From: an uncultured virus (IMG/VR IMGVR_UViG_2703719318_000005)
Lineage: Duplodnaviria; Heunggongvirae; Uroviricota; Caudoviricetes
IMG/VR virus record: IMGVR_UViG_2703719318_000005
Length of the DNA stretch: 64,000 bases
Strand: one strand, 5' to 3'
The notes under the pieces are model-generated. The model did no database searches. It worked only from the letters and a program-made list of their open reading frames with translations, and was not told where the DNA came from. A program made the translations under genes and the position numbers. Each line of letters begins with the position of its first letter. The first letter of the stretch is position 1. Shown here one piece after another: positions 1 through 64,000 of the stretch.

Positions 1-579
1 ATGAATTGCAGTACAGTATATGTTTTTATAGGTAGCGCATTAGATAATAATATTATAAGAAAAAGCTTCAAAACGGATGGGATTTGTTTTGTGGATAAAG
101 ACTCTTTAACTGATGTTGAAGCTGATTATCAAACAAAAGTTAACTACATAAATTTAAACGATTCTCAATCAATAGAAAAAATATTTGAAGACATTGAGGG
201 CATAAAAAGTATAGTAGTATGTCCGAGTATTAACAATGAATTAAAATACGATAAATTGTTATTAGATGTGGATAGGGTACTTAGAAAACTAGTTATATTT
301 TCAAAGGGAATTTATCCAACTGCTATGAGAAATAAAGGAATTAAAGTATGGTTTTTAGATTCTAACGTAGCTAATAATGAAAATTATGTATTAACAAAAT
401 CTTTTAGTGCTGGAGTAAATGCTATTTCAAAAACCTTTGGTATGGAGTTGGCTAGAAAAAGTACAATAGTAAATTATATAAAATTAAATGATATTGATAA
501 TTTTGAGAAAATAAGTGATTTTATTGATTTGGTATTGGATAAATCAATATATTTAGATATGCAGAATTTAATTGTGTGA
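1..579 (+). CDS. Degenerate SDR/FabG-like protein
   Basis: SDR-like C-terminal half (YVLTKSFSAGVNAISKTFGMELA) but no intact TGxxxGxG motif; overlaps the next SDR gene. Confidence 0.55.
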   Translation: MNCSTVYVFIGSALDNNIIRKSFKTDGICFVDKDSLTDVEADYQTKVNYINLNDSQSIEKIFEDIEGIKSIVVCPSINNELKYDKLLLDVDRVLRKLVIFSKGIYPTAMRNKGIKVWFLDSNVANNENYVLTKSFSAGVNAISKTFGMELARKSTIVNYIKLNDIDNFEKISDFIDLVLDKSIYLDMQNLIV

Positions 580-1324
580 GATGAATGATATGGATAAAAA
601 AATTGCGTTAATAACAGGTGGGAGTGGAGGCATAGGGGCTAAAATATGCAGTAAATTAGCTGAAAATAAATACTATGTTTATATAAACTGTAGAAATGAA
701 GATAAGGCAAAGAAACTATTAGATGAGATAATAGCATTAGGAGGAGAAGGAGAGGTTTTGGTCTTTGATCTTAACTCTAAAGAATCACTGATAGAAGGAA
801 TAAATAAAATTAAATTTAGTAAAATTGATATTCTTGTAAATAACGCAGGGGTGTTAAGAGATAATATTATTTATAATATGAAGATGGAAGATTATGATTT
901 GGTTTTTAAAACCAACTTTATAGCATGTTTAGATATGTATGATGCTGTACTTAGTAGGCTAGAAAAATCAGAAGCTCCAGTGGTAATTAATATGTGTAGT
1001 ATATCAGGTGTTAGACCAAGAACTGGACAACTAGCCTATGGTGTATCAAAAGCAATGTTAATTGAATGGACAAAAAGTATGGCGAAATGCAATGAAAATA
1101 TAAGATATTATGCTGTATCACCAGGTCCTGTAGAAACAGAATTAATTAAAACCTCTAAGTGGTATAATGATAAAAAATCAATTAAAAGAATACCTTTAGG
1201 GAGATATGCTAAACCTGAGGAGATTGCGGATTTTATATCTTACATCATTGATAATCCTAAAATATTTAAAAGTGGAAGCAACATAATATTAGATGGGGGA
1301 TTTTTACAAACCACAAAGGAATAA
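572..1324 (+). CDS. SDR family oxidoreductase, 3-oxoacyl-ACP reductase-like
   Basis: TGGSGGIG, NNAG, YGVSK catalytic motif, VSPGPVET, IPLGR, DGG. Confidence 0.9.
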   Translation: MCEMNDMDKKIALITGGSGGIGAKICSKLAENKYYVYINCRNEDKAKKLLDEIIALGGEGEVLVFDLNSKESLIEGINKIKFSKIDILVNNAGVLRDNIIYNMKMEDYDLVFKTNFIACLDMYDAVLSRLEKSEAPVVINMCSISGVRPRTGQLAYGVSKAMLIEWTKSMAKCNENIRYYAVSPGPVETELIKTSKWYNDKKSIKRIPLGRYAKPEEIADFISYIIDNPKIFKSGSNIILDGGFLQTTKE

Positions 1325-1328
1325 TTAC

Positions 1329-1364
1329 AAAAAAGGTTATACGATTTTTCGTGTAACTTTTTTT
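1329..1364 (+). terminator. Intrinsic terminator
   Basis: AAAAAAGGTTATACGA-TTTT-TCGTGTAACTTTTTT hairpin (G-U pairs allowed) right after the SDR stop. Confidence 0.8.
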
Positions 1365-1470
1365 GTCTAAAGAATTTTTATATAAGTTTTAGAGCTGTAA
1401 AATGATTAATAATTGTAAATGTTAAAAATATACATAGGTAATGGTAAAAGTATTAGGGAGGATGGCAATT

Positions 1471-1680
1471 TTGCCTAGATCGAAGAATGGATATAGTATA
1501 AATGTACACTATCCTAGTGATAAATCAGCTTTAGTTCAATTAAGAAAAAGAATGGGAAAAGCTTATGTTAAATTCATACAAGATTACATTAAGACCTTGC
1601 CTATAGACGATAATAAGAAGAATGAACTTTACTTTAATGTAATAGAAAAACTGAAAATAGATAAAAATGCAAGTTATTAA
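1471..1680 (+). CDS. Small protein (~69 aa), candidate recombination directionality factor
   Basis: GGGAGG RBS before TTG at 1471; lies directly upstream of the recombinase; function inferred from position only. Confidence 0.5.
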   Translation: MPRSKNGYSINVHYPSDKSALVQLRKRMGKAYVKFIQDYIKTLPIDDNKKNELYFNVIEKLKIDKNASY

Positions 1681-1733
1681 GGGTAATTTCTATTTGGTTT
1701 GTGAATTATATAATTATTAAGGTAGGGATCAGA

Positions 1734-3368
1734 ATGAAGGCAGCTATATATTCTCGTAAAAGCAAATATACTGGCAAGGGCGAAAGCATTGAAAATCAAA
1801 TTCAGTTATGCAAAGAATATGGATTGAAGTATTTAGAAATGTCCAAAGAGGATTTTATTGTATACGAAGATGAGGGCTTTTCAGGTGGAAATACTAAAAG
1901 ACCTCAATTTCAGAAAATGTTAAAGGATGCTAAAGAGAGAAAGTTTAATATATTGATATGCTATAGATTAGATAGAATAAGCAGAAATGTATCGGATTTT
2001 TCTAATTTGATCAATGATTTAAATAGATATAGTGTGGATTTTGTTTCTATCAGAGAACAGTTTGATACTACTACGCCAATGGGGAGAGCTATGATGTATA
2101 TAGCATCCGTTTTTTCTCAATTGGAGAGAGAAACTATTGCTGAAAGAATAAGAGATAATATGATAGAGCTTGCTAAGACCGGAAGATGGCTTGGGGGAAT
2201 TACACCTACTGGTTTTCAATCGGAAGCTATAATAAAGGTGGATTCAGGTGGAAAAGAAAGAAAAATGTTTAAATTATCTGTTGTTGAGGAAGAAATTAAT
2301 GTAGTTAAACTAATTTATAATAAATATATTGAGTTGAAATCAATAACTAAAGTTGAAAAATATTTAATAATTAATAAGATCAATACTAAAAACGGACTAG
2401 ATTTTCAAAGATATTCATTGAAGTTTTTACTTGGAAACCCTGTATACGCTGTAGCTGATAAAAATATGTATGAGTATTTAATTAGTAAAAATTATGAGGT
2501 TTATTCAGAATTAAAAGATTTTAATGGAATACATGGACTCATAGCCTACAATAAAACCTGTCAAAATAAAGAACAAAGTATAAATAGATTTAGAAATTCA
2601 AGCGAATGGATTATAGCTGTTGGAAAGCATCAGGGGGTTATTCCAAGTGATATTTGGATTGAGGCACAGAATTTATTAGAACAAAATAAATCAAAGGCCT
2701 ATAGGAAAGTTAAAAGTAATCAATCTATTTTATCTGGTGTTTTAAGGTGTGCATATTGTGGAAGTTATATGAGACCAAAGGCAGTGCAAAGAAAAAATTC
2801 TGATGGTGAACAGGTTTTTTATTATTTGTGTGAAATGAAAGAAAAAAGCAAAAAAACTCGCTGTAATGTTTCAAATATTAATGGAAATGTTTTAGATAAA
2901 TTAATAATTAACGAATTGAAAAAAATCATCAAAGAAAAATTCCCCTTATTTCAGGATATGAATTTTAAAAAAACATTAATAGAATGTAATTATATGGGCT
3001 CAGAAAATGAATTAATAGAAAAGAAAATATCTGAAATTGATTTATCTATTATGAATATAATGAGTTCAATTGAAAAAGGTCAGCCAGAAAGTGTTTTAGA
3101 AATAATGTATAAACGTATGGAGAAGCTTGACAAAGAAAAGAAGGATTTAAATAAAAGGTTGTCACAAGCAAATAGTGTAGGTAAAAATTCTAAGTCTAAC
3201 TCCATAAATATGGAATTTATTTATAAGAGCTTATGTAGTTTTAATGATAGTTCCTGGGAGCTTATGAATGTAGAGGATAAAAGAAACCTAATAAAGAGTG
3301 TGGTAGATAAAATTTTATGGGATGGTAAAAAAATTGATATGCTATTATTGGGAAGTGAAATATCCTGA
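1734..3368 (+). CDS. spoIVCA: Large serine recombinase, SpoIVCA-like
   Basis: AIYSRKS catalytic Ser motif, DEGFSGG, RLDRISR, recombinase domain, zinc ribbon (CAYCG...YYLC), coiled coil. Confidence 0.85.
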   Translation: MKAAIYSRKSKYTGKGESIENQIQLCKEYGLKYLEMSKEDFIVYEDEGFSGGNTKRPQFQKMLKDAKERKFNILICYRLDRISRNVSDFSNLINDLNRYSVDFVSIREQFDTTTPMGRAMMYIASVFSQLERETIAERIRDNMIELAKTGRWLGGITPTGFQSEAIIKVDSGGKERKMFKLSVVEEEINVVKLIYNKYIELKSITKVEKYLIINKINTKNGLDFQRYSLKFLLGNPVYAVADKNMYEYLISKNYEVYSELKDFNGIHGLIAYNKTCQNKEQSINRFRNSSEWIIAVGKHQGVIPSDIWIEAQNLLEQNKSKAYRKVKSNQSILSGVLRCAYCGSYMRPKAVQRKNSDGEQVFYYLCEMKEKSKKTRCNVSNINGNVLDKLIINELKKIIKEKFPLFQDMNFKKTLIECNYMGSENELIEKKISEIDLSIMNIMSSIEKGQPESVLEIMYKRMEKLDKEKKDLNKRLSQANSVGKNSKSNSINMEFIYKSLCSFNDSSWELMNVEDKRNLIKSVVDKILWDGKKIDMLLLGSEIS

Positions 3369-3394
3369 GCTTAAAATGTTTCCGGAGTGTGAGA

Positions 3395-3493
3395 ATAGAA
3401 AATGAGATACTAATGCTTATAAGAAATAATAAAAAGAGTAAAAATGAGGTATACCTTCAAGATCCAATTGGTGTAGACAAGGAAGGTAATGAA
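3395..3493 (+). other. sigK: Internal fragment of sigK (middle piece of a split gene)
   Basis: Translates to IENEILMLIRNNKKSKNEVYLQDPIGVDKEGNE, matching the conserved SigK segment ARCIENEILM...DPIGxDKEGNEISL; flanked by non-sigK DNA and an in-frame TAA. Confidence 0.92.
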
Positions 3494-3520
3494 TAACATC
3501 TATGATGTTAGACATATACC
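3488..3520. other. Putative attL of the prophage
   Basis: sigK homology stops after AATGAA; followed by palindrome TAACATC-TAT-GATGTTA and the integrase stop codon. Confidence 0.6.
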
Positions 3521-5029
3521 TCAAAACCTTGTATATAGCTGTAAATCAAAGTCATCGTTACGTTGATTTTTTGATTTTATATACTTAGCTTCTATCAAAA
3601 TACTTTTCAACAGCTGATTTTTTTCAGTAATATCCTTTGAACTTTTATATTCTTTAATAGCATCACGTATTTTTGATAAATTTAAGTTTTTGCTCTTGTC
3701 TTCCTTCTTTAGCAATTCTTTTAATGAATTCATTTCAGTACTTACTTTATTAGATCTATCTGCCAAATTATTCGAACGTTCAACAAATGTATTGTTATCA
3801 TATATTCCTTGCTCAAGTAAATCAAACAATTTCATTTTTTGACTATTTAGTGTTGATAATTTCTTTTCTAAAACTGATATCTGAATCTTATATGTATCAA
3901 TTTTAGAATTATTTTTATTGATTTTTTCCATATTTGACTCATAGTTGTTTAGTAGTGTTTCTAAAGCATTAAGTAGTGCTTTTTCAACATAATCAAATCG
4001 GGCACTTTTATTGCCACATTTTTTCATGCATATTATATGTGGAAGTCTGTTACCGTATTTTCTTAAAACCATTTTACTTCCACATACACCACATGTTATT
4101 ATACCTGCAAGGGGATTGACAGCACCATTTTTTAGCTGATATGGTACATGATATTTATTTTTTAATATTTCCTTAGCCTGATTAAATATCTCATCACTAA
4201 TTATAGGTTTATGTTTACCATCTGCTACAATCCATTCTGATTTGTTCCTTGTCCTAGTGTCTTTTACTTTGTTAGGATTTTTAGATTTTTTAATTTCTTT
4301 TTTCCTCCATGTTACTTTTCCTATATAAACAGGGTTTTTCAATATAAAAAGTATACTGCTAGATTCGAATTCTCTGCAATTTTTTGTGCTATATCCAAGA
4401 GCATTTAGACGATTTGCTATTATTCCTGCACCATTTCCGTCGGTATACAATTTAAAAATTAATTTTACTATTTCAGCTTCTTTAGGGTTTGGTTTTAGAG
4501 TTCTATTTTTATTTATAAAAGTTATATCATAGCCAAATGGGGGGTTAGCTGATATATAATTTCCATCTTCTATGCTTCTTACTCTGCCACCTTGCATACG
4601 TCTGTTTATCATTTTCAGTTCTTTTCTACTCATAAATGCTTCAAATTCAGAATACTCTTCGTCAAAATCGTTATCCAAATCATAAGTTTTCATTGGTGTT
4701 ATTATTTTTGTATGGGAATTTTTAAAGGTTTCTAAAACAATTCCTTGGTCTTTCATATCTCCACGACCTAAACGCTGCATATCCATAACTAAAACACCAG
4801 TATACATTTTAGCTTCAACTTCTTTTAAAAGCTCAAGCATTTTAGGTCTGAAAAATAAGCTCTCACCACTTACTATTTCTTCTTTTATTTCTACTATATT
4901 TAGTTTCTTTTCCTTAGCAAACTTAAGCAAAGCTTTTCTGTGTTTTAATAATGTTTCACCTTCACCTAAAGTTTTTTCTAGTTCCTCATCGGCTCTTGAT
5001 TTTCTTAAATAAATGCAAATCTTATCCAT
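3521..5029 (-). CDS. Prophage large serine integrase
   Basis: IYLRKSR, MDMQRLGRG, PPFGY, zinc ribbon CGVCG, coiled coil. Confidence 0.92.
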   Translation of the reverse strand: MDKICIYLRKSRADEELEKTLGEGETLLKHRKALLKFAKEKKLNIVEIKEEIVSGESLFFRPKMLELLKEVEAKMYTGVLVMDMQRLGRGDMKDQGIVLETFKNSHTKIITPMKTYDLDNDFDEEYSEFEAFMSRKELKMINRRMQGGRVRSIEDGNYISANPPFGYDITFINKNRTLKPNPKEAEIVKLIFKLYTDGNGAGIIANRLNALGYSTKNCREFESSSILFILKNPVYIGKVTWRKKEIKKSKNPNKVKDTRTRNKSEWIVADGKHKPIISDEIFNQAKEILKNKYHVPYQLKNGAVNPLAGIITCGVCGSKMVLRKYGNRLPHIICMKKCGNKSARFDYVEKALLNALETLLNNYESNMEKINKNNSKIDTYKIQISVLEKKLSTLNSQKMKLFDLLEQGIYDNNTFVERSNNLADRSNKVSTEMNSLKELLKKEDKSKNLNLSKIRDAIKEYKSSKDITEKNQLLKSILIEAKYIKSKNQRNDDFDLQLYTRF

Positions 5030-5049
5030 TAGCAACACTTCCATTAAAA

Positions 5050-5253
5050 TTAATTGTTTTCTTTATATTCAATTATATCGCTTATATTACATTTTAAGTA
5101 TTCACACAATTTATCTATTATTTGAAGCGCAATAAAGTCACCATTATTTATTCTTGTCATTGTGCTTTTACTGATTACTTTACTGACTACTAAGTCTTTT
5201 TTCTCTAAATCTTTATCTATAAGCGTTTTAAAAAAAGGTTTATAACTTATCAT
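5050..5253 (-). CDS. Cro/C1-type HTH protein (67 aa)
   Basis: MISYKPF...IIDKLCEYLKCNISDIIEY pattern; directly upstream of the integrase. Confidence 0.8.
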   Translation of the reverse strand: MISYKPFFKTLIDKDLEKKDLVVSKVISKSTMTRINNGDFIALQIIDKLCEYLKCNISDIIEYKENN

Positions 5254-5587: not shown

Positions 5588-6775
5588 ATGTGTAAATTAG
5601 AACCTTATCAAAGGTTAAAAAAGATAGTAGAAGAATTAGGTGTAAGCCAAACAGAATTATCTTGTAAATATCTAGGGAGAGCAACTATAAACAAAATTCT
5701 TAATGGAGAGAGACCCTTAGGAGCAGCTCAGGCATATAAGTTTATACAAAGATTTAAAGACTTTGGGTATGATACAGATATTGAATTAATATTAGGCGTG
5801 CCTGCAAAAACTATAAATGGTATAGTAACGAAATTTTTAAGCAATACAAAGAAATATTACTTAGAGTTTGATGAATTGATAGACAAGTTATATAAGGATA
5901 AGGCTATAGAAGTTATTTGGGAAGTTATACAAGAATTAGATGACCAAGATGTTTATAAAAATGCAAATACTATATTGAAATATTTAACAAAATTAATGCA
6001 ATATGATTTAGATGAAAATACATATCTAGAAGTTAATTTAGAGCTGATTAAAATTTATACAGCAACAGGAAACTATGAACGTGCAATTTCAGGATTTAAT
6101 TCAGTTAAAAATTTTAATACATTAGATAGGGAGAGTAGAGTTAAGTGTCTTTTGAATGTAGCTTTAGCATACTACAATCTTAGAGAATATAAATTATCAA
6201 TAGATATTGCATCCAGAGTCATGAGACTTAGAATTTTTGATAAATACTATTTTAAAGCAGCAATAATAAAAGCTAATGTGCTTTACACAAAAGGCAGTAT
6301 TATGGCGAGTATTAAAGAGTATGAGAAAATTTCAATAACGGCCAAGAAACATAATTTCTTGAATTATGTTTCAACAAGTGAAAGCAACATAGGGTATGTG
6401 TTTACAGAACAAAATAAATTAGACTTAGCAAAAATATATTTGGACCAGGCAATGAAAAATTTTGATACATTAGATAACTATTACAAACTAAATGTTTATG
6501 ATAATGTATTCTATTTGAAACTTAAAAATAATACAGCCGATTTTAGTTCATTTGAAAAAGTAATGACTTTAGCTTTCAATGTTAATGATAATTTCAGGAT
6601 TAAAAATAATATAAAACAATTTGTAAGCTATGCTATTAAGAATAAAAAAAACAAAGAATTTTTTGCAAAGATATTAGGGTTCCTGAATCCAAAAGGCTTA
6701 GAATTAGAATCAAGTTTAAAATTAAAGATAATGGAATATTTAGCAGGTAAAACATTTGAAAACATGATAAAATAG
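5588..6775 (+). CDS. HTH plus TPR-repeat regulator, RRNPP/AimR-like peptide receptor
   Basis: N-terminal XRE-like HTH (LGVSQTELS...TINKILNGER) followed by TPR-like repeats (LNVALAYYNLREY, SNIGYVFTEQNKLDLAKIYLDQAM); followed by a small signal-peptide ORF. Confidence 0.8.
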   Translation: MCKLEPYQRLKKIVEELGVSQTELSCKYLGRATINKILNGERPLGAAQAYKFIQRFKDFGYDTDIELILGVPAKTINGIVTKFLSNTKKYYLEFDELIDKLYKDKAIEVIWEVIQELDDQDVYKNANTILKYLTKLMQYDLDENTYLEVNLELIKIYTATGNYERAISGFNSVKNFNTLDRESRVKCLLNVALAYYNLREYKLSIDIASRVMRLRIFDKYYFKAAIIKANVLYTKGSIMASIKEYEKISITAKKHNFLNYVSTSESNIGYVFTEQNKLDLAKIYLDQAMKNFDTLDNYYKLNVYDNVFYLKLKNNTADFSSFEKVMTLAFNVNDNFRIKNNIKQFVSYAIKNKKNKEFFAKILGFLNPKGLELESSLKLKIMEYLAGKTFENMIK

Positions 6776-6838: not shown

Positions 6839-6943
6839 ATGAAAAAAATATTAGCAAGTAAAACAGTAGGTACTTTAGTAGCTGTAGCATTAATATTTAT
6901 ACCTGTTATAAGCTTTGTAATAGGAAGCCCGGGAGTTTCATAA
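6839..6943 (+). CDS. 34-aa secreted signalling pro-peptide (AimP/Phr-like)
   Basis: GGGGAGG RBS; MKKILASKTVGTLVAVALIFIPVISFVIGSPGVS has a basic N-terminus, hydrophobic core and short polar tail. Confidence 0.8.
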   Translation: MKKILASKTVGTLVAVALIFIPVISFVIGSPGVS

Positions 6944-7174: not shown

Positions 7175-7552
7175 TTATTGCTCTTTTTTTATTTTCTCTT
7201 CTTCAATTATCTTATTTAATGTTTCTTTTATCGTATAGGTGATTAATTTTTGTAAATCACTGTCTATATTCTGAGTATTTGTAATTAATCCTTTTTGTAC
7301 TAATCGTTTAAGCAGTTCATCTACTACATATTCTTTTCTTTTTTCAATTTCAACATCTAATTTATCAACTCTTAATTCATCCAATGTCAAATTAAAATAA
7401 TTTGCTAAAGTTTGTAGGGTTTCATCAGAACCAGTTTTGTGACCTTCTTCTATTTTACTAATCATACTTACCGACAATCCAGTTTCATCAGCAAGTTGTT
7501 TTTGTGTTATACCCTTTGATTTTCTTAATTTCTTAAGCTTTTCACTTAGCAT
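7175..7552 (-). CDS. CI-like XRE repressor
   Basis: MLSEKLKKLRKSKGITQKQLADETGLSVSMISKIEEG HTH; AAGGAG RBS; divergent from the Cro-like gene. Confidence 0.85.
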   Translation of the reverse strand: MLSEKLKKLRKSKGITQKQLADETGLSVSMISKIEEGHKTGSDETLQTLANYFNLTLDELRVDKLDVEIEKRKEYVVDELLKRLVQKGLITNTQNIDSDLQKLITYTIKETLNKIIEEEKIKKEQ

Positions 7553-26793: not shown

Positions 26794-26997
26794 ATGCAAG
26801 AATATAGAACCGAATATTGTTTGAAAGATGATGAAGCAGCATTTTACGAAGACGATAAAGTAGATATACAAAGTAATGATAAAAGAATAGTTGGAACTAT
26901 AGCAGTAATCACGGCTTACAGATTATTTATAGATACAGAAAAAGGAACACGTGATTTTGTAAACATAAGCGATATTAGGAGTGTGAAGAAGCTATGA
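26794..26997 (+). CDS. Hypothetical phage protein
   Basis: GGAGGTG RBS. Confidence 0.55.
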   Translation: MQEYRTEYCLKDDEAAFYEDDKVDIQSNDKRIVGTIAVITAYRLFIDTEKGTRDFVNISDIRSVKKL

Positions 26998-27923
26998 AGC
27001 TATCTGAATACTATGATAAATGGATTACAACTTATAAGAAAAATAACGTAAGATCAGTAACTTATCAAAAATATTTAATGACAGGTAAATCACTAAAAGA
27101 GATTGAACCTGATTGCGATATTTCCAAAATTGATAGAGGGATATATCAGAAAATTGTAAATAAATATGCTGAAGCACATGAACACTTAACAGTAATGGAT
27201 TTTCACAGACAAATTAGAGCTAGTGTTTTAGATGCAGCGGATGAAGGAATTATTGAAAGAGATTTTACAAGGAGAGTCCAAATTGGTGGGAAGCCAAAAA
27301 CTAGAAAGCTAAAAAAGTTTTTAGAAGAAGATGAAGCTAAAATATTTATTGCTGATTTAAATATCAATACCAAGGAACTTAATTGGGATCACTTCTTACT
27401 GTTATTAATTAATACTGGATTACGTTATGCTGAAGCATTAGCACTAACACCTAGTGATTTTGATTTTATAAGTAGAACAATTGATGTTAATAAATCGTAT
27501 GACTATAAGTCAAAAACCAAAACCAATAGATTTCAACCCACGAAAAATGTATCATCAAATCGTATTATATCACTAGATTTAAAAACAGCATGGATATTAA
27601 GACCGCTGATAGAAAAGCTTAATCCTACAGAACCGATATTTCCTTACTGGTATGGTGGGGGGCATGTAATAATATATAATTCGACCATAAATGATATTAT
27701 AGCTAGACATTGTAATAACGTAGGAATCAACAAAATAACAGTGCATGGGCTAAGACATACACATGCGAGTCTTTTAATAGCGAAGAAAGTTAGTATACAA
27801 GCAGTGGCTAAAAGATTGGGACATGCTAATACAATAACAACTCAGTCGACGTATATTCATCCACTGAAAGCAGCAATGAAGGAAGCAGACGAAAAGATTG
27901 AAAGCATTTTAGTAAATATGTAA
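26994..27923 (+). CDS. Tyrosine recombinase
   Basis: TGLRYAE, HGLRHTHAS, RLGH, TYIH catalytic residues. Confidence 0.92.
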   Translation: MKLSEYYDKWITTYKKNNVRSVTYQKYLMTGKSLKEIEPDCDISKIDRGIYQKIVNKYAEAHEHLTVMDFHRQIRASVLDAADEGIIERDFTRRVQIGGKPKTRKLKKFLEEDEAKIFIADLNINTKELNWDHFLLLLINTGLRYAEALALTPSDFDFISRTIDVNKSYDYKSKTKTNRFQPTKNVSSNRIISLDLKTAWILRPLIEKLNPTEPIFPYWYGGGHVIIYNSTINDIIARHCNNVGINKITVHGLRHTHASLLIAKKVSIQAVAKRLGHANTITTQSTYIHPLKAAMKEADEKIESILVNM

Positions 27924-61567: not shown

Positions 61568-61957
61568 TTATTTCTTCCCATACTTCTTTAAAAGAAACTC
61601 TACATATGTAAGGGTTTCTTCATTAATATCCTCACAAGAGTTTATCCAGCCTAAGTTTTTAAGACCAAGCTTTATGTAGTCTTTAATACTTTCAAGTTGG
61701 GTATTCTCTTTTTGGTTATCTAAATATCCTGCATAAATTAATAGCTGTTCTTTATCCAGATCTAATCCAGTAGCAAGTTTAACCACGGTATCCGTGTCAG
61801 ATGTAGTTATACTGCCTTTTTCAATTCTGCTAATTGTAGTATTGCTTAAGCCTGTCAACTCAGAAAGTTTTCTTTGAGAATATCCTCTAAGTTCACGTAT
61901 TCTTTTTAGATATTGTCTGAAAGTTTCATTTTCTGTTTTTAATAATTTATTCTCCAT
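61568..61957 (-). CDS. XRE-family regulator
   Basis: LKRIRELRGYSQRKLSELTGLSNTTISRIEKG. Confidence 0.88.
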   Translation of the reverse strand: MENKLLKTENETFRQYLKRIRELRGYSQRKLSELTGLSNTTISRIEKGSITTSDTDTVVKLATGLDLDKEQLLIYAGYLDNQKENTQLESIKDYIKLGLKNLGWINSCEDINEETLTYVEFLLKKYGKK

Positions 61958-62021
61958 AACGCACCTCACCCAAATACTAATATGTAAATTATACCATTAA
62001 ATATATATTTAAGGTAACCTA

Positions 62022-62570
62022 AAAAATAAAAGCTCCAGCAATTCACTGAAGCTCTTACGTAAACAAATTAGATGTTTTGGAGTATGATTCAAAATGAAAC
62101 ATAGTTGTAAATATAGAAATGAATGTATCCCACGCACATAATTAATATGCGTTAAAAAATAAATACTATACACATTAAGGAATTTGTTATCTTTGTAAGG
62201 TGTATTAATAAGCAAAAAGGACGAGGGGGTTAGTTCACGTCCTTATATATATATAAATTATTAATTTGGAAAAAATGATATCTTATGTTGCATTTTTATT
62301 ATTACCAAAATGAATTAATGTATGTAAACATATTTAATAATTAAGCTAGAAATGCACATGATAAATAAGGAATAAAATTAATTTTAGGAGCTGTTTAAAT
62401 GAAAATATTAGGCATAGTGTTTATTGTAATAAGTATCATATCAGGTATTGCAGCAACAAAATTAACTGGTGAGATTGGAATAATCACTGTAATTGCATGC
62501 ATGGTTTTTGGATTGGCAGGAATAGGAGTTATGTTTAAGAAGGAAAAATAAAAGCTCCAGCAATTCACTG
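62022..62570. repeat. 27-bp direct repeat with hairpin character, two copies
   Basis: AAAAATAAAAGCTCCAGCAATTCACTG at 62022-62048 and 62544-62570. Confidence 0.8.
62399..62551 (+). CDS. 50-aa two-helix membrane peptide
   Basis: AGGAG RBS; MKILGIVFIVISIISGIAATKLTGEIGIITVIACMVFGLAGIGVMFKKEK. Confidence 0.65.
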   Translation: MKILGIVFIVISIISGIAATKLTGEIGIITVIACMVFGLAGIGVMFKKEK

Positions 62571-62666
62571 GAACTTTCACCTATATTTGATAAGAGAATA
62601 TTTTTAATAGTTAGTTTATCCATTTCTTAATTATTGCCATAACCTAGATAAGTATACATATTAAAA

Positions 62667-63749
62667 TTAAATATCCTCATGAGATTTTTTACGTGATATT
62701 TTTCTATAGTCCTTATATGAAGTAAGTAGTTCTTTTATCTCATATATCACTAAAAGTGAAGGTACTTCCATCTCAGTTAGAAATTCATCTAAAGCTAATT
62801 TTTCTCCATCTGCATCATCCTCAAGTTTCAAGTTATAAAGTATTCCGTACCCTTGTCTTATACGCTTGTTTGATATAGCTAACTCTATAGTTTTAAATAC
62901 TTCATAATTTGCTATATCTGTATCTTTGAAAGTATACTTCAAGACTTCTACAATTCCAGAGCTGTCCATTTCCCTTATATCCGCAATAAAACAATCTTCT
63001 ATTTTAAAATTACTATAGTTTTTCTCATTTACTCGTAGTTCTTTAAAGTACATAGTCCATAGTTTCATAATCTGTATATCAATTAAACTATAAAAATTAT
63101 AAGATTTTCTTTTATCACTGTACTCTCCGACAATATTTTTTTGAAATAAACTAGGATCGTATTCATGACTGAAAAATAAGCAATGAAAATGTGGATGATA
63201 AGTATTACTTTCTTCGTTATAGGTAATTTCAAGTACTTTTAAAGCACCTTCAAACCCCATTAATCTATCCTTAAAACCTTTTGTGGTTTTGCCTTCTAAA
63301 TCGTATGAATACGCACCGAATAATTTTTTAAAAGATTTATTCATTTTTTCTATTGTTCTTTTAAGTTCTATTCCTTGTACATTAGGAATTGTAAGTGTAA
63401 CCAAGTAAGGGTAATATCCATCTAGCAGTAGATTATTAAGCGGTACTTTAAGATTATGAATGGCACAGGCTAAATTAAATTTGCGGCAATTGGGACAAAA
63501 ACGGTTATTCATGCACCTGTTAACTTTTTGTAAGTCTAATAACTTATTATTTTTATATAGATCCCAAAGCCATATATCCATACAGTTTTTTATACGTTCA
63601 CTTTTCTTCTTTAAAGTTTCGGAATATGCAAAATGCTGTTCGCTTCTCATTTCTTCACTCATTCTTATATACCATGCTGCATATTTACTATTATAGTCAA
63701 TTCTTTTTTGCTCCATTTTTTCAAGAGTTTCGTTCTCAAAATCCATCAA
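62667..63749 (-). CDS. rep: Rolling-circle replication initiator (Rep_1 / pC194 family)
   Basis: C..RFCPNC, LVTLTIPN (motif I), LEITYN..YHPHFH (HUH), EVLKYTFKD (motif III). Confidence 0.9.
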   Translation of the reverse strand: MMDFENETLEKMEQKRIDYNSKYAAWYIRMSEEMRSEQHFAYSETLKKKSERIKNCMDIWLWDLYKNNKLLDLQKVNRCMNNRFCPNCRKFNLACAIHNLKVPLNNLLLDGYYPYLVTLTIPNVQGIELKRTIEKMNKSFKKLFGAYSYDLEGKTTKGFKDRLMGFEGALKVLEITYNEESNTYHPHFHCLFFSHEYDPSLFQKNIVGEYSDKRKSYNFYSLIDIQIMKLWTMYFKELRVNEKNYSNFKIEDCFIADIREMDSSGIVEVLKYTFKDTDIANYEVFKTIELAISNKRIRQGYGILYNLKLEDDADGEKLALDEFLTEMEVPSLLVIYEIKELLTSYKDYRKISRKKSHEDI

Positions 63750-63818
63750 CCATGCTCCCTTAAGCTTATTAAGTCTGCAATCCCTTTATTTAAGCCAAAA
63801 TTACACTTGTTTGTATAA

Positions 63819-63912
63819 GTATCGAGTATATATAAAAGACTACTAGGCATTAGCATCGAAACCGTTCTACTATTTATGCTGACGCACGAAATTTTCGATG
63901 CTAATGCCTAGT
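63819..63912 (-). other. Putative double-strand origin and large hairpin
   Basis: Minus strand GTCTTTTATATATACTCGATAC resembles the pC194-type nick site CTTGATA; 20-bp perfect inverted repeat at 63842-63861/63893-63912. Confidence 0.6.
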
Positions 63913-64000
63913 GTTGTAATAAAGCACGTCCTTAACGAAATTGTAATTTGCCGAAAAATAGGGGCTTTCAAACTTAATTGGCTTACTGGTAGTCCCATCC

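Follow-up and report, generated by a model that had tools for sequence, protein, structure and literature searches.

A sigK gene probably interrupted twice, by a skin-type element and by a sigK-targeting prophage, in a Clostridium close to C. acetobutylicum

Interruption of sigK is the standard example of a DNA rearrangement tied to bacterial development. As far as the accessible text of the PhiS63 report describes it, the skin element of Bacillus subtilis (skinBs), with a 5-nucleotide core, lies in a different region of sigK from PhiS63, skinCd and skinCt (PMC3442830, for PhiS63). PhiS63 of Clostridium perfringens and the phiCT phages of C. tetani are described as residing in sigK (PMC3442830, PMC5553647), and the core published for PhiS63 is GTAATGAAAT, at nucleotide 427 of the gene (PMC3442830). 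Two small proteins, Skr of B. subtilis (64 aa) and CD1234 of C. difficile (72 aa), are reported to be directionality factors under the control of a mother-cell sigma factor (PMC6957869, PMC5025042). In the accessible portions of this literature all described interruptions, including those in a survey of 15 genomes (10.1101/2022.02.25.481979), divide the gene into two fragments, and no doubly interrupted sigK is described. Each of the two elements presented here is of a known kind; their joint occupancy of one sigK is what is new.

The window analysed is a stretch of 64,000 nucleotides from the record of an uncultured virus of the Caudoviricetes (IMG/VR IMGVR_UViG_2703719318_000005), and its features are collected in Table 1. 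Near its left end two genes converge, and the limits of the gap between them are set by the stop codon of the left gene at 3366-3368 (plus strand) and that of the right gene at 3521-3523 (minus strand). As the original prediction had it, both are large serine recombinases arranged tail to tail: Pfam finds Resolvase, Recombinase and Zn_ribbon_recom domains in each. The two proteins, LSR1 and LSR2, are 22% identical.

Table 1. Features of the window around the interrupted sigK, with coordinates in the window
Feature	Coordinates	Strand	Description
Element 1 right-hand cargo	1-1324	+	192-aa ORF 1-579; short-chain dehydrogenase/ketoreductase 572-1324
Small ORF	1462-1680	+	72 aa from ATG 1462; 79 aa from 1441; directly upstream of LSR1
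LSR1	1734-3368	+	544 aa; motif YSRKS with Ser10; Resolvase, Recombinase, Zn_ribbon_recom
LSR1-LSR2 gap	3369-3520		152 bp; between convergent, tail-to-tail genes
attR of element 1	3369-3404	+	Element-side arm 3369-3394 and 10-bp core ATAGAAAATG 3395-3404
sigK middle piece	3395-3493	+	33 codons; SigK residues 110-142
attL of element 2	3485-3520	+	Core GGTAATGAA 3485-3493 and phage-side arm TAACATCTATGATGTTAGACAT...
LSR2, phage integrase	3521-5044	-	507 aa; large serine recombinase, three LSR domains
HTH_26 protein	5050-5253	-	67 aa; upstream of LSR2, lysogeny region
Element 2 prophage	3494-64000, on to at least 66824		PHROGs scan and G001

Within the gap, the frame 3395-3493 reads as IENEILMLIRNNKKSKNEVYLQDPIGVDKEGNE. 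All 33 residues are identical to residues 110-142 of P0003, a SigK of 234 aa labelled as C. acetobutylicum, which bears out the earlier recognition of a 33-codon internal SigK piece. A tblastn search within the window matched 3371-3493 to P0003 residues 102-142 (E 8e-16) and detected no further sigK-like stretch there, the next match (E 0.06) being an HTH protein. When the piece itself was used as a database query, 1436 proteins were returned, nearly all of them SigK.

The piece is bounded by two junctions of different kind, each with its own large serine recombinase, as had been proposed. Both known kinds of sigK site are likewise occupied here: the IEN site, used by the LSR1 clade, and the phage GNE site, used by relatives of LSR2 and carrying the PhiS63 core. 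The piece measures 99 bp and still holds, about 80 bp from each other, the half-sites that the gene contributes to the two junctions. The original prediction placed the skin element of B. subtilis at the IENE codons with an AATGA core, and pointed to AATGA at both ends of the piece. The motif is indeed present at 3401-3405 and 3488-3492, but the two copies fall in distinct cores, the first overlapping the element 1 core and the second lying in that of element 2. The pairing is a coincidence, and the copies are not the paired cores of one element.

A single close match to the left part of the window, the genome G145, was found among 401 representative genomes of Clostridiaceae (383 scored). Window positions 1-3493 align without gaps to G145 C1:2280231-2283723 at 98.8% identity (43 mismatches), and the similarity breaks off precisely at 3493. 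G145 carries element 1 alone, and its sigK is split into two pieces with 10.36 kb between them. The 5' piece has ...TYAARCIEN as its end, at a position that corresponds to about 7.3 kb to the left of the window start. The 3' piece (127 aa) starts with (V/M)RIENEILM and runs through to the natural stop, and an identical protein is present in the protein database as P0001. No intact sigK was found in G145, where the next best sigma match, 45% identical, is a sigE-like gene in a sigE/sigG cluster. The 10-bp sequence ATAGAAAATG occurs at both ends of the G145 element (L107 3256-3265 and 13626-13635). Seen whole in this genome, element 1 is about 10.4 kb long and lies inside the sigK frame, flanked by both parts of the gene and by the direct-repeat core; the window, which starts about 7.3 kb inside the element, shows only its right junction. 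The core of this junction is identical, and its arm similar, in another genome, G492. The middle piece itself shows no difference from G145 in 99 positions, against about 1.2 expected from 43 differences in 3493 bases, and this is uninformative. The lack of stops across 33 codons also carries little weight as a sign of use, although the piece might still be in use, as was suggested.

The genes at the left edge of the window are the last ones of a ketosynthase/ACP cluster that is whole in G145 (L107 3636-11555). There, element 1 encodes an alpha/beta hydrolase, an ACP-like protein, three ketosynthase-like proteins, two proteins without family assignment, a short-chain dehydrogenase of the ketoreductase type, the small ORF and LSR1; phage genes were not found in this whole copy. 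In having a ketosynthase/ACP/ketoreductase cargo, element 1 departs from the phage-like skin elements of the accessible literature. The reading frame of LSR1 is open from 1701, its likely start being the ATG at 1734, which is preceded by AAGGTAGGGA, and LSR1 is 99% identical to the G145 copy. The whole G145 arrangement is also present in single contigs of three sequencing runs from two studies, and in runs X1 and X3 one contig spans the whole stretch, with 94-102 differences in 16,001 bases. No contig joining across element 1, as expected of the excised form, was found in the three runs, contigs being assemblies that drop rare forms.

Homologues of the small ORF upstream of LSR1 were found in 6 of 30 LSR1-type loci, including the copy in G145 (tblastn E<=6e-5). 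Five lie directly upstream of the recombinase gene and in the same orientation, and the sixth (L116) is on the opposite strand. The five homologues other than the G145 copy are more distant, with 62-70 aa and 23-49% identity. Three elements of about 1.6 kb consist of only the small ORF and a shortened recombinase of about 455 aa. These elements intervene in sigK in three genomes (L118 ~1245-2855, L120 ~1358-2998 and L126 ~1229-2849) and are smaller than the 2.6-kb minimum given for such elements in the accessible part of the preprint by Galperin (10.1101/2022.02.25.481979). A motif like AACATAATA..(N)..CATATA(A/C)AT is present upstream of the small ORF in all three. In the window, the sporulation-type promoter motifs that precede the small ORF fall short of a call, and no convincing sporulation-type promoter was seen upstream of the small ORF and LSR1 when these regions were compared by eye with a consensus. 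By its position and size, like those of Skr and CD1234, the small ORF is a candidate recombination directionality factor of LSR1.

At the right junction the comparison with G145 is direct, since the site of element 2 is unoccupied there. G145 has GAAGGTAATGAA followed by ATATCACTAATTG, whereas the window has GAAGGTAATGAA followed by TAACATCTATGATGTTAGACAT and then the 3' end of LSR2. Immediately after the core, G145 continues with ATATCAC and the window with TAACATC. Element 2 is thus inserted between the G-N-E and I-S-L codons of sigK. The core is annotated as AGGCAATGAA at both ends in the record of phiCT453A. LSR2 is 65% identical to the recombinases of phiCT453A, phiCT19406A, phiCTC2A and phiCT9441A of C. 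tetani and 60% identical to the PhiS63 integrase, in comparisons that span 99% of the length. The phage-side arm (..ACATGTTAGACAT..) is similar in 8 related loci, with the same break after AATGAA. Judged from these sequences, the right junction is a canonical attL of a sigK-targeting temperate phage.

In all five related genomes tested, the LSR2-type gene adjoins the 5' piece of sigK, from residue 1 or 2 to residues 143-148, and the 3' piece is located elsewhere. In G232 it lies at a distance of 51 kb on the same contig, and in G208 at 8 kb. Besides the split sigK on C6, G208 has a second sigK-like locus (C3:15897-16579) with overlapping matches to residues 2-125 and 119-229, which suggests a frameshifted or second copy. 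The sigK parts of G699 (C1:178364-181922, L151) are oppositely oriented: a 5' piece on the minus strand has an LSR2-type gene as its neighbour, and a 3' piece with stops is found 1.3 kb away on the plus strand.

The body of element 2 has the gene content of a whole tailed phage, with PHROGs modules for lysogeny, replication, packaging, head, tail and lysis. Its genes include a repressor, an anti-repressor, RecT, DnaD, methylases, terminase, portal, capsid, tail, tape measure and endolysin, and an HTH/Rep_1/FtsK module starts at about 61.5 kb. An IMG/VR provirus of 59650 nt (G001), with a CheckV completeness of 100, is identical to the window from position 7175 to its end and extends the sequence by 2.8 kb, to coordinate 66824. 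The prophage is absent from G145 and from the three runs with the G145 arrangement. No sequencing run with both elements was found, the best word share being 0.40, and there was no near match to the phage body among 50,697 phage records. In the lysogeny region, a 395-aa protein with HTH and TPR domains (5588-6775, plus strand) is followed by a 34-aa signal-peptide-like ORF (6839-6943, plus strand). We take this layout to resemble peptide-based phage or RRNPP-type communication systems. A tyrosine recombinase with a Phage_integrase domain is encoded in the middle of the prophage (26994-27923, plus strand), in addition to LSR2 at its edge.

Towards the right end, lysis genes at about 55.8-57.4 kb are followed by unassigned genes and then, on the opposite strand, by the HTH/Rep_1/FtsK module. 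This module covers window 61568-64000 and L003 1-3200 (to 66824) on the minus strand, and also L188 907-7218. Host synteny was considered for the same region, and discarded: window 60-62.5 kb and G145 at 3.417 Mb share only two short similarities at gene level, one of 226 bp at 92% and one of 413 bp at 67%. The related provirus G1190 shows a matching tandem of lysis genes and Rep_1/FtsK module, together with a lysogeny region 78% identical to that of the window. Large serine recombinases, 40% and 44% identical to LSR1, are present at both its ends, so the far right end of the window's element may hold a further recombinase. In G1190 the Rep_1/FtsK module is followed by the recombinase that is 44% identical to LSR1, with a 58-aa RDF-like ORF beside it. 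The module may represent a nested mobilisable element or a second recombination module.

A further comparison of G1190 (L189 8471-10421) with window 3521-5253 shows that the HTH_26 protein and the TPR regulator are kept and that an LSR1-like recombinase (40%) replaces LSR2. Another recombinase stands in the place of LSR2, evidently through an exchange of the integrase module among phages that are related. The HTH_26 protein, whose homologue precedes this different recombinase, is probably not a specific partner of LSR2.

Outer pieces of sigK had been expected in the flanking sequence. A 5' piece with the expected end, ..TYAARCIEN, exists in the 98.8% identical G145, but no 3' piece belonging to this strain turned up as far as 66824. 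The search covered the window and the 2.8 kb beyond it taken from G001, and neither a 3' piece nor an attR was detected there by tblastn, by the TIGR02846 model, by a 26-base pattern with 3 mismatches allowed or by a search for the inverted arm. Exact-pattern scans for the 3' piece or attR, two in viral and two in metagenome contig collections, gave no match, and a search of genome contigs with SigK returned only intact genes of other species. The prediction that joining the pieces restores the reading frame held: the G145 5' piece, the window's middle piece and the G145 3' piece give 705 nt encoding 234 aa without an internal stop. The joined SigK is 97.4% identical to P0003 over 234/234 residues with no gaps. 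As the outer pieces are those of G145, this join tests geometry and frame, and not the presence of outer pieces in this strain.

An LSR1-type gene is present in 33 genomes (E<=1e-120) of a sample of the class Clostridia (401 drawn, 399 scored). Of 30 such loci fetched, with recombinases 41-65% identical, 23 adjoin a sigK piece broken at residue ~110-120; the pieces either start at residue ~110 (I-E/A-N-E-I-L-M) or end at residues 114-121. Among 401 Bacilli genomes sampled, one has an LSR1-type gene (46% identical), located directly upstream of a sigK piece that starts with RIANEILM, i.e. at the I-A-N-E codons. LSR2-type genes were found in 27 genomes of the Clostridia sample (E<=1e-100), and only 4 of 29 LSR2-type loci adjoin sigK, all at the GNE site. 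More distant relatives of LSR2 evidently use other targets. G770, which was considered as a complex case, proved to have an ordinary two-piece sigK cut at the IEN site.

A second three-piece sigK is present in G492, a genome of a different lineage whose SigK is about 63% identical to P0003. Its 5' piece ends with ATAGAAAATG followed by CTATCC, next to an LSR1-type gene. The middle piece lies between ...ATAGAAAATG and GGAAATGAA followed by TTACCTTCAATAGG, where it adjoins an LSR2-type gene. Ahead of the 3' piece stands ...CCTATTGAAGGAAATGAA, and each of the two phage-side arms is the inverted copy of the other. When joined, the three pieces align with SigK over residues 10-228 without a gap. 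A separate 8.5-kb contig (C3:1-8526; L180-L184) carries the middle piece together with the LSR2-type gene, whereas the 48 kb between the outer pieces are continuous on another (C10:108360-157014), without the middle piece and without N gaps. No k-mers are common to the C3 ends and this 48-kb stretch. Assembly collapse, mixed strains or a real rearrangement are possible reasons for this discrepancy. In addition, two 70-aa ORFs from metagenomes, P0241 and P0242, read (V/M)VIENEILM...DKEGNE and continue with non-sigK residues, and look like middle pieces.

These observations suggest that the sigK of a Clostridium close to C. acetobutylicum has probably been interrupted twice, by a resident skin-type element and by a later sigK-targeting prophage, and that both excisions would be needed. 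As the resident of the lineage, element 1 would be a non-phage skin-type element of ~10.4 kb that uses the core ATAGAAAATG and occupies the I-E-N codons. Element 2 would be the later arrival, a siphovirus-like temperate prophage of more than 63 kb with a PhiS63/phiCT-type integrase and the core GGTAATGAA. The 3' sigK piece would then be located at the far end of the prophage, both excisions would take place in the mother cell, and the small ORF would act as the directionality factor of LSR1. With only 22% identity between the recombinases and no relation between their sites, each pair of junctions should depend on its own enzyme, and a whole sigK should thus need both excisions. The arrangement might in this way form an AND-gate on late sporulation, as the original prediction proposed. 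Several points fit this scheme less well. Up to 66824 neither the 3' piece nor the attR of element 2 was found, no excised form was seen in contigs of the three runs, no clear sporulation promoter was recognised in the window, and no directionality factor was identified for LSR2. In C. acetobutylicum SigK is reported to be needed also before Spo0A (PMC8102284), and such an early role is a poor fit with a gene that is rebuilt only in the mother cell. Moreover, the far end of element 2 is uncertain, given the additional Rep_1/FtsK module on its right side.

The phage insertion might instead be a recent accident, in which case the prophage would exit by ordinary induction only, the strain would sporulate poorly or not at all, and the middle piece would not yet have decayed. 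The prophage looks intact, is rated 100% complete and is absent from G145 and from the three runs, the lack of differences in the middle piece is uninformative, and neither a sporulation promoter nor a directionality factor was recognised for LSR2. We nevertheless regard such an accident as unlikely, since phages of the same family are reported in sigK of readily spore-forming C. tetani strains (PMC5553647) and PhiS63 is reported to excise precisely (PMC3442830). The three-piece sigK of G492 and the two metagenome ORFs also speak against it, and their recurrence suggests that a three-piece state is tolerated.

It is less likely still that sigK is dead and that a rearrangement involving the several elements with recombinases at the right end has removed its 3' piece or carried it elsewhere. 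Insertion by serine integrases is conservative, and in G145, which is 98.8% identical, the middle and 3' pieces form one uninterrupted stretch; both points weigh against this improbable loss, in spite of the lack of an attR or 3' piece within 63 kb of attL. A Rep_1/FtsK module is found where attR would be expected, only ~2.6 kb separate attR from the endolysin in phiCT453A, and in G1190 the module is paired with a further large serine recombinase. However, the tandem of lysis module and Rep_1/FtsK module is also found in G1190, so it may be part of the element. That the window is an assembly chimera of a G145-like contig and a prophage contig is hardly credible, for although G492 shows that such loci assemble badly, the break falls exactly at the known phage core, beyond which come the conserved arm and, in canonical orientation, the cognate integrase, a junction that a chance misjoin would not reproduce.

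Double interruption by a resident element and a later prophage is thus the reading we prefer, and a bolder form of it can be considered, which we put forward tentatively as falling somewhat short of probable. The three-piece sigK would be a working and recurrent state, in which two orthogonal systems, that of a resident element with biosynthetic cargo and that of a live phage, fire in the mother cell and splice in a 99-bp 'exon', and it would have arisen independently in at least one further lineage at genus level, that of G492. In such a working state the 99-bp piece would be just long enough for one half-site of each junction. If this were true, late sporulation would have to wait for two excisions independent of each other, and lysogeny of a temperate phage in an already split gene need not abolish sporulation.

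With two unrelated serine recombinases needed for one natural gene, this sigK would allow a direct test of how excision is timed against the sporulation cascade. The case also bears on whether phages and host-resident elements share mother-cell signals, and on the delay or failure that a second lock might add. It would be a natural example of the two-input recombinase logic of synthetic biology, and provides a ready pair of orthogonal enzymes and sites. For relatives of C. acetobutylicum, a split sigK raises the question of how the early role of SigK, as described for that species (PMC8102284), is served.

Among the described systems, PhiS63 and the phiCT phages, which are the site-A prophages of C. 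tetani, are like element 2 in having the integrase at the edge of the prophage, oriented opposite to sigK and adjoining the upstream sigK part. Their cores, GTAATGAAAT and AGGCAATGAA, correspond to GGTAATGAA here at the same codons, and all are whole tailed phages. In contrast to these phages, the upstream sigK part is only 99 bp here, because another element is already present 80 bp upstream, and element 2 has more than 63 kb, as compared to 34-47 kb, and an extra Rep_1/FtsK module. Element 1 is like the skin-type elements, namely B. subtilis skin and those of the 15 genomes as far as the survey's accessible text describes them (10.1101/2022.02.25.481979), in having the large serine recombinase, SpoIVCA-like in those elements, at its edge, directly upstream of and co-directional with the downstream sigK part. 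It shares with them a short direct-repeat core and a cargo that varies between elements, and the small ORF before the recombinase corresponds in position to skr in the description of the B. subtilis skin (PMC6957869). It differs in its cargo, a ketosynthase/ACP/ketoreductase cluster without phage genes.

In skinCd of C. difficile, the constitutive recombinase CD1231 and the small mother-cell factor CD1234 are reported to give cell-specific excision (PMC5025042), and the same working model is adopted here. The 3' end of the skinCd recombinase gene faces the upstream sigK part, as does that of LSR2. This likeness is drawn from descriptions, and skinCd differs in that no CD1234-like gene was identified beside LSR2. 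The nifD, fdxN and hupL elements of Anabaena differ from the sigK case in organism, gene and cell type, and LSR1 and LSR2 both score weakly against the XisF model. As described in the accessible text, these elements likewise reassemble developmental genes through element-encoded recombinases in a terminal cell (PMC4191935).
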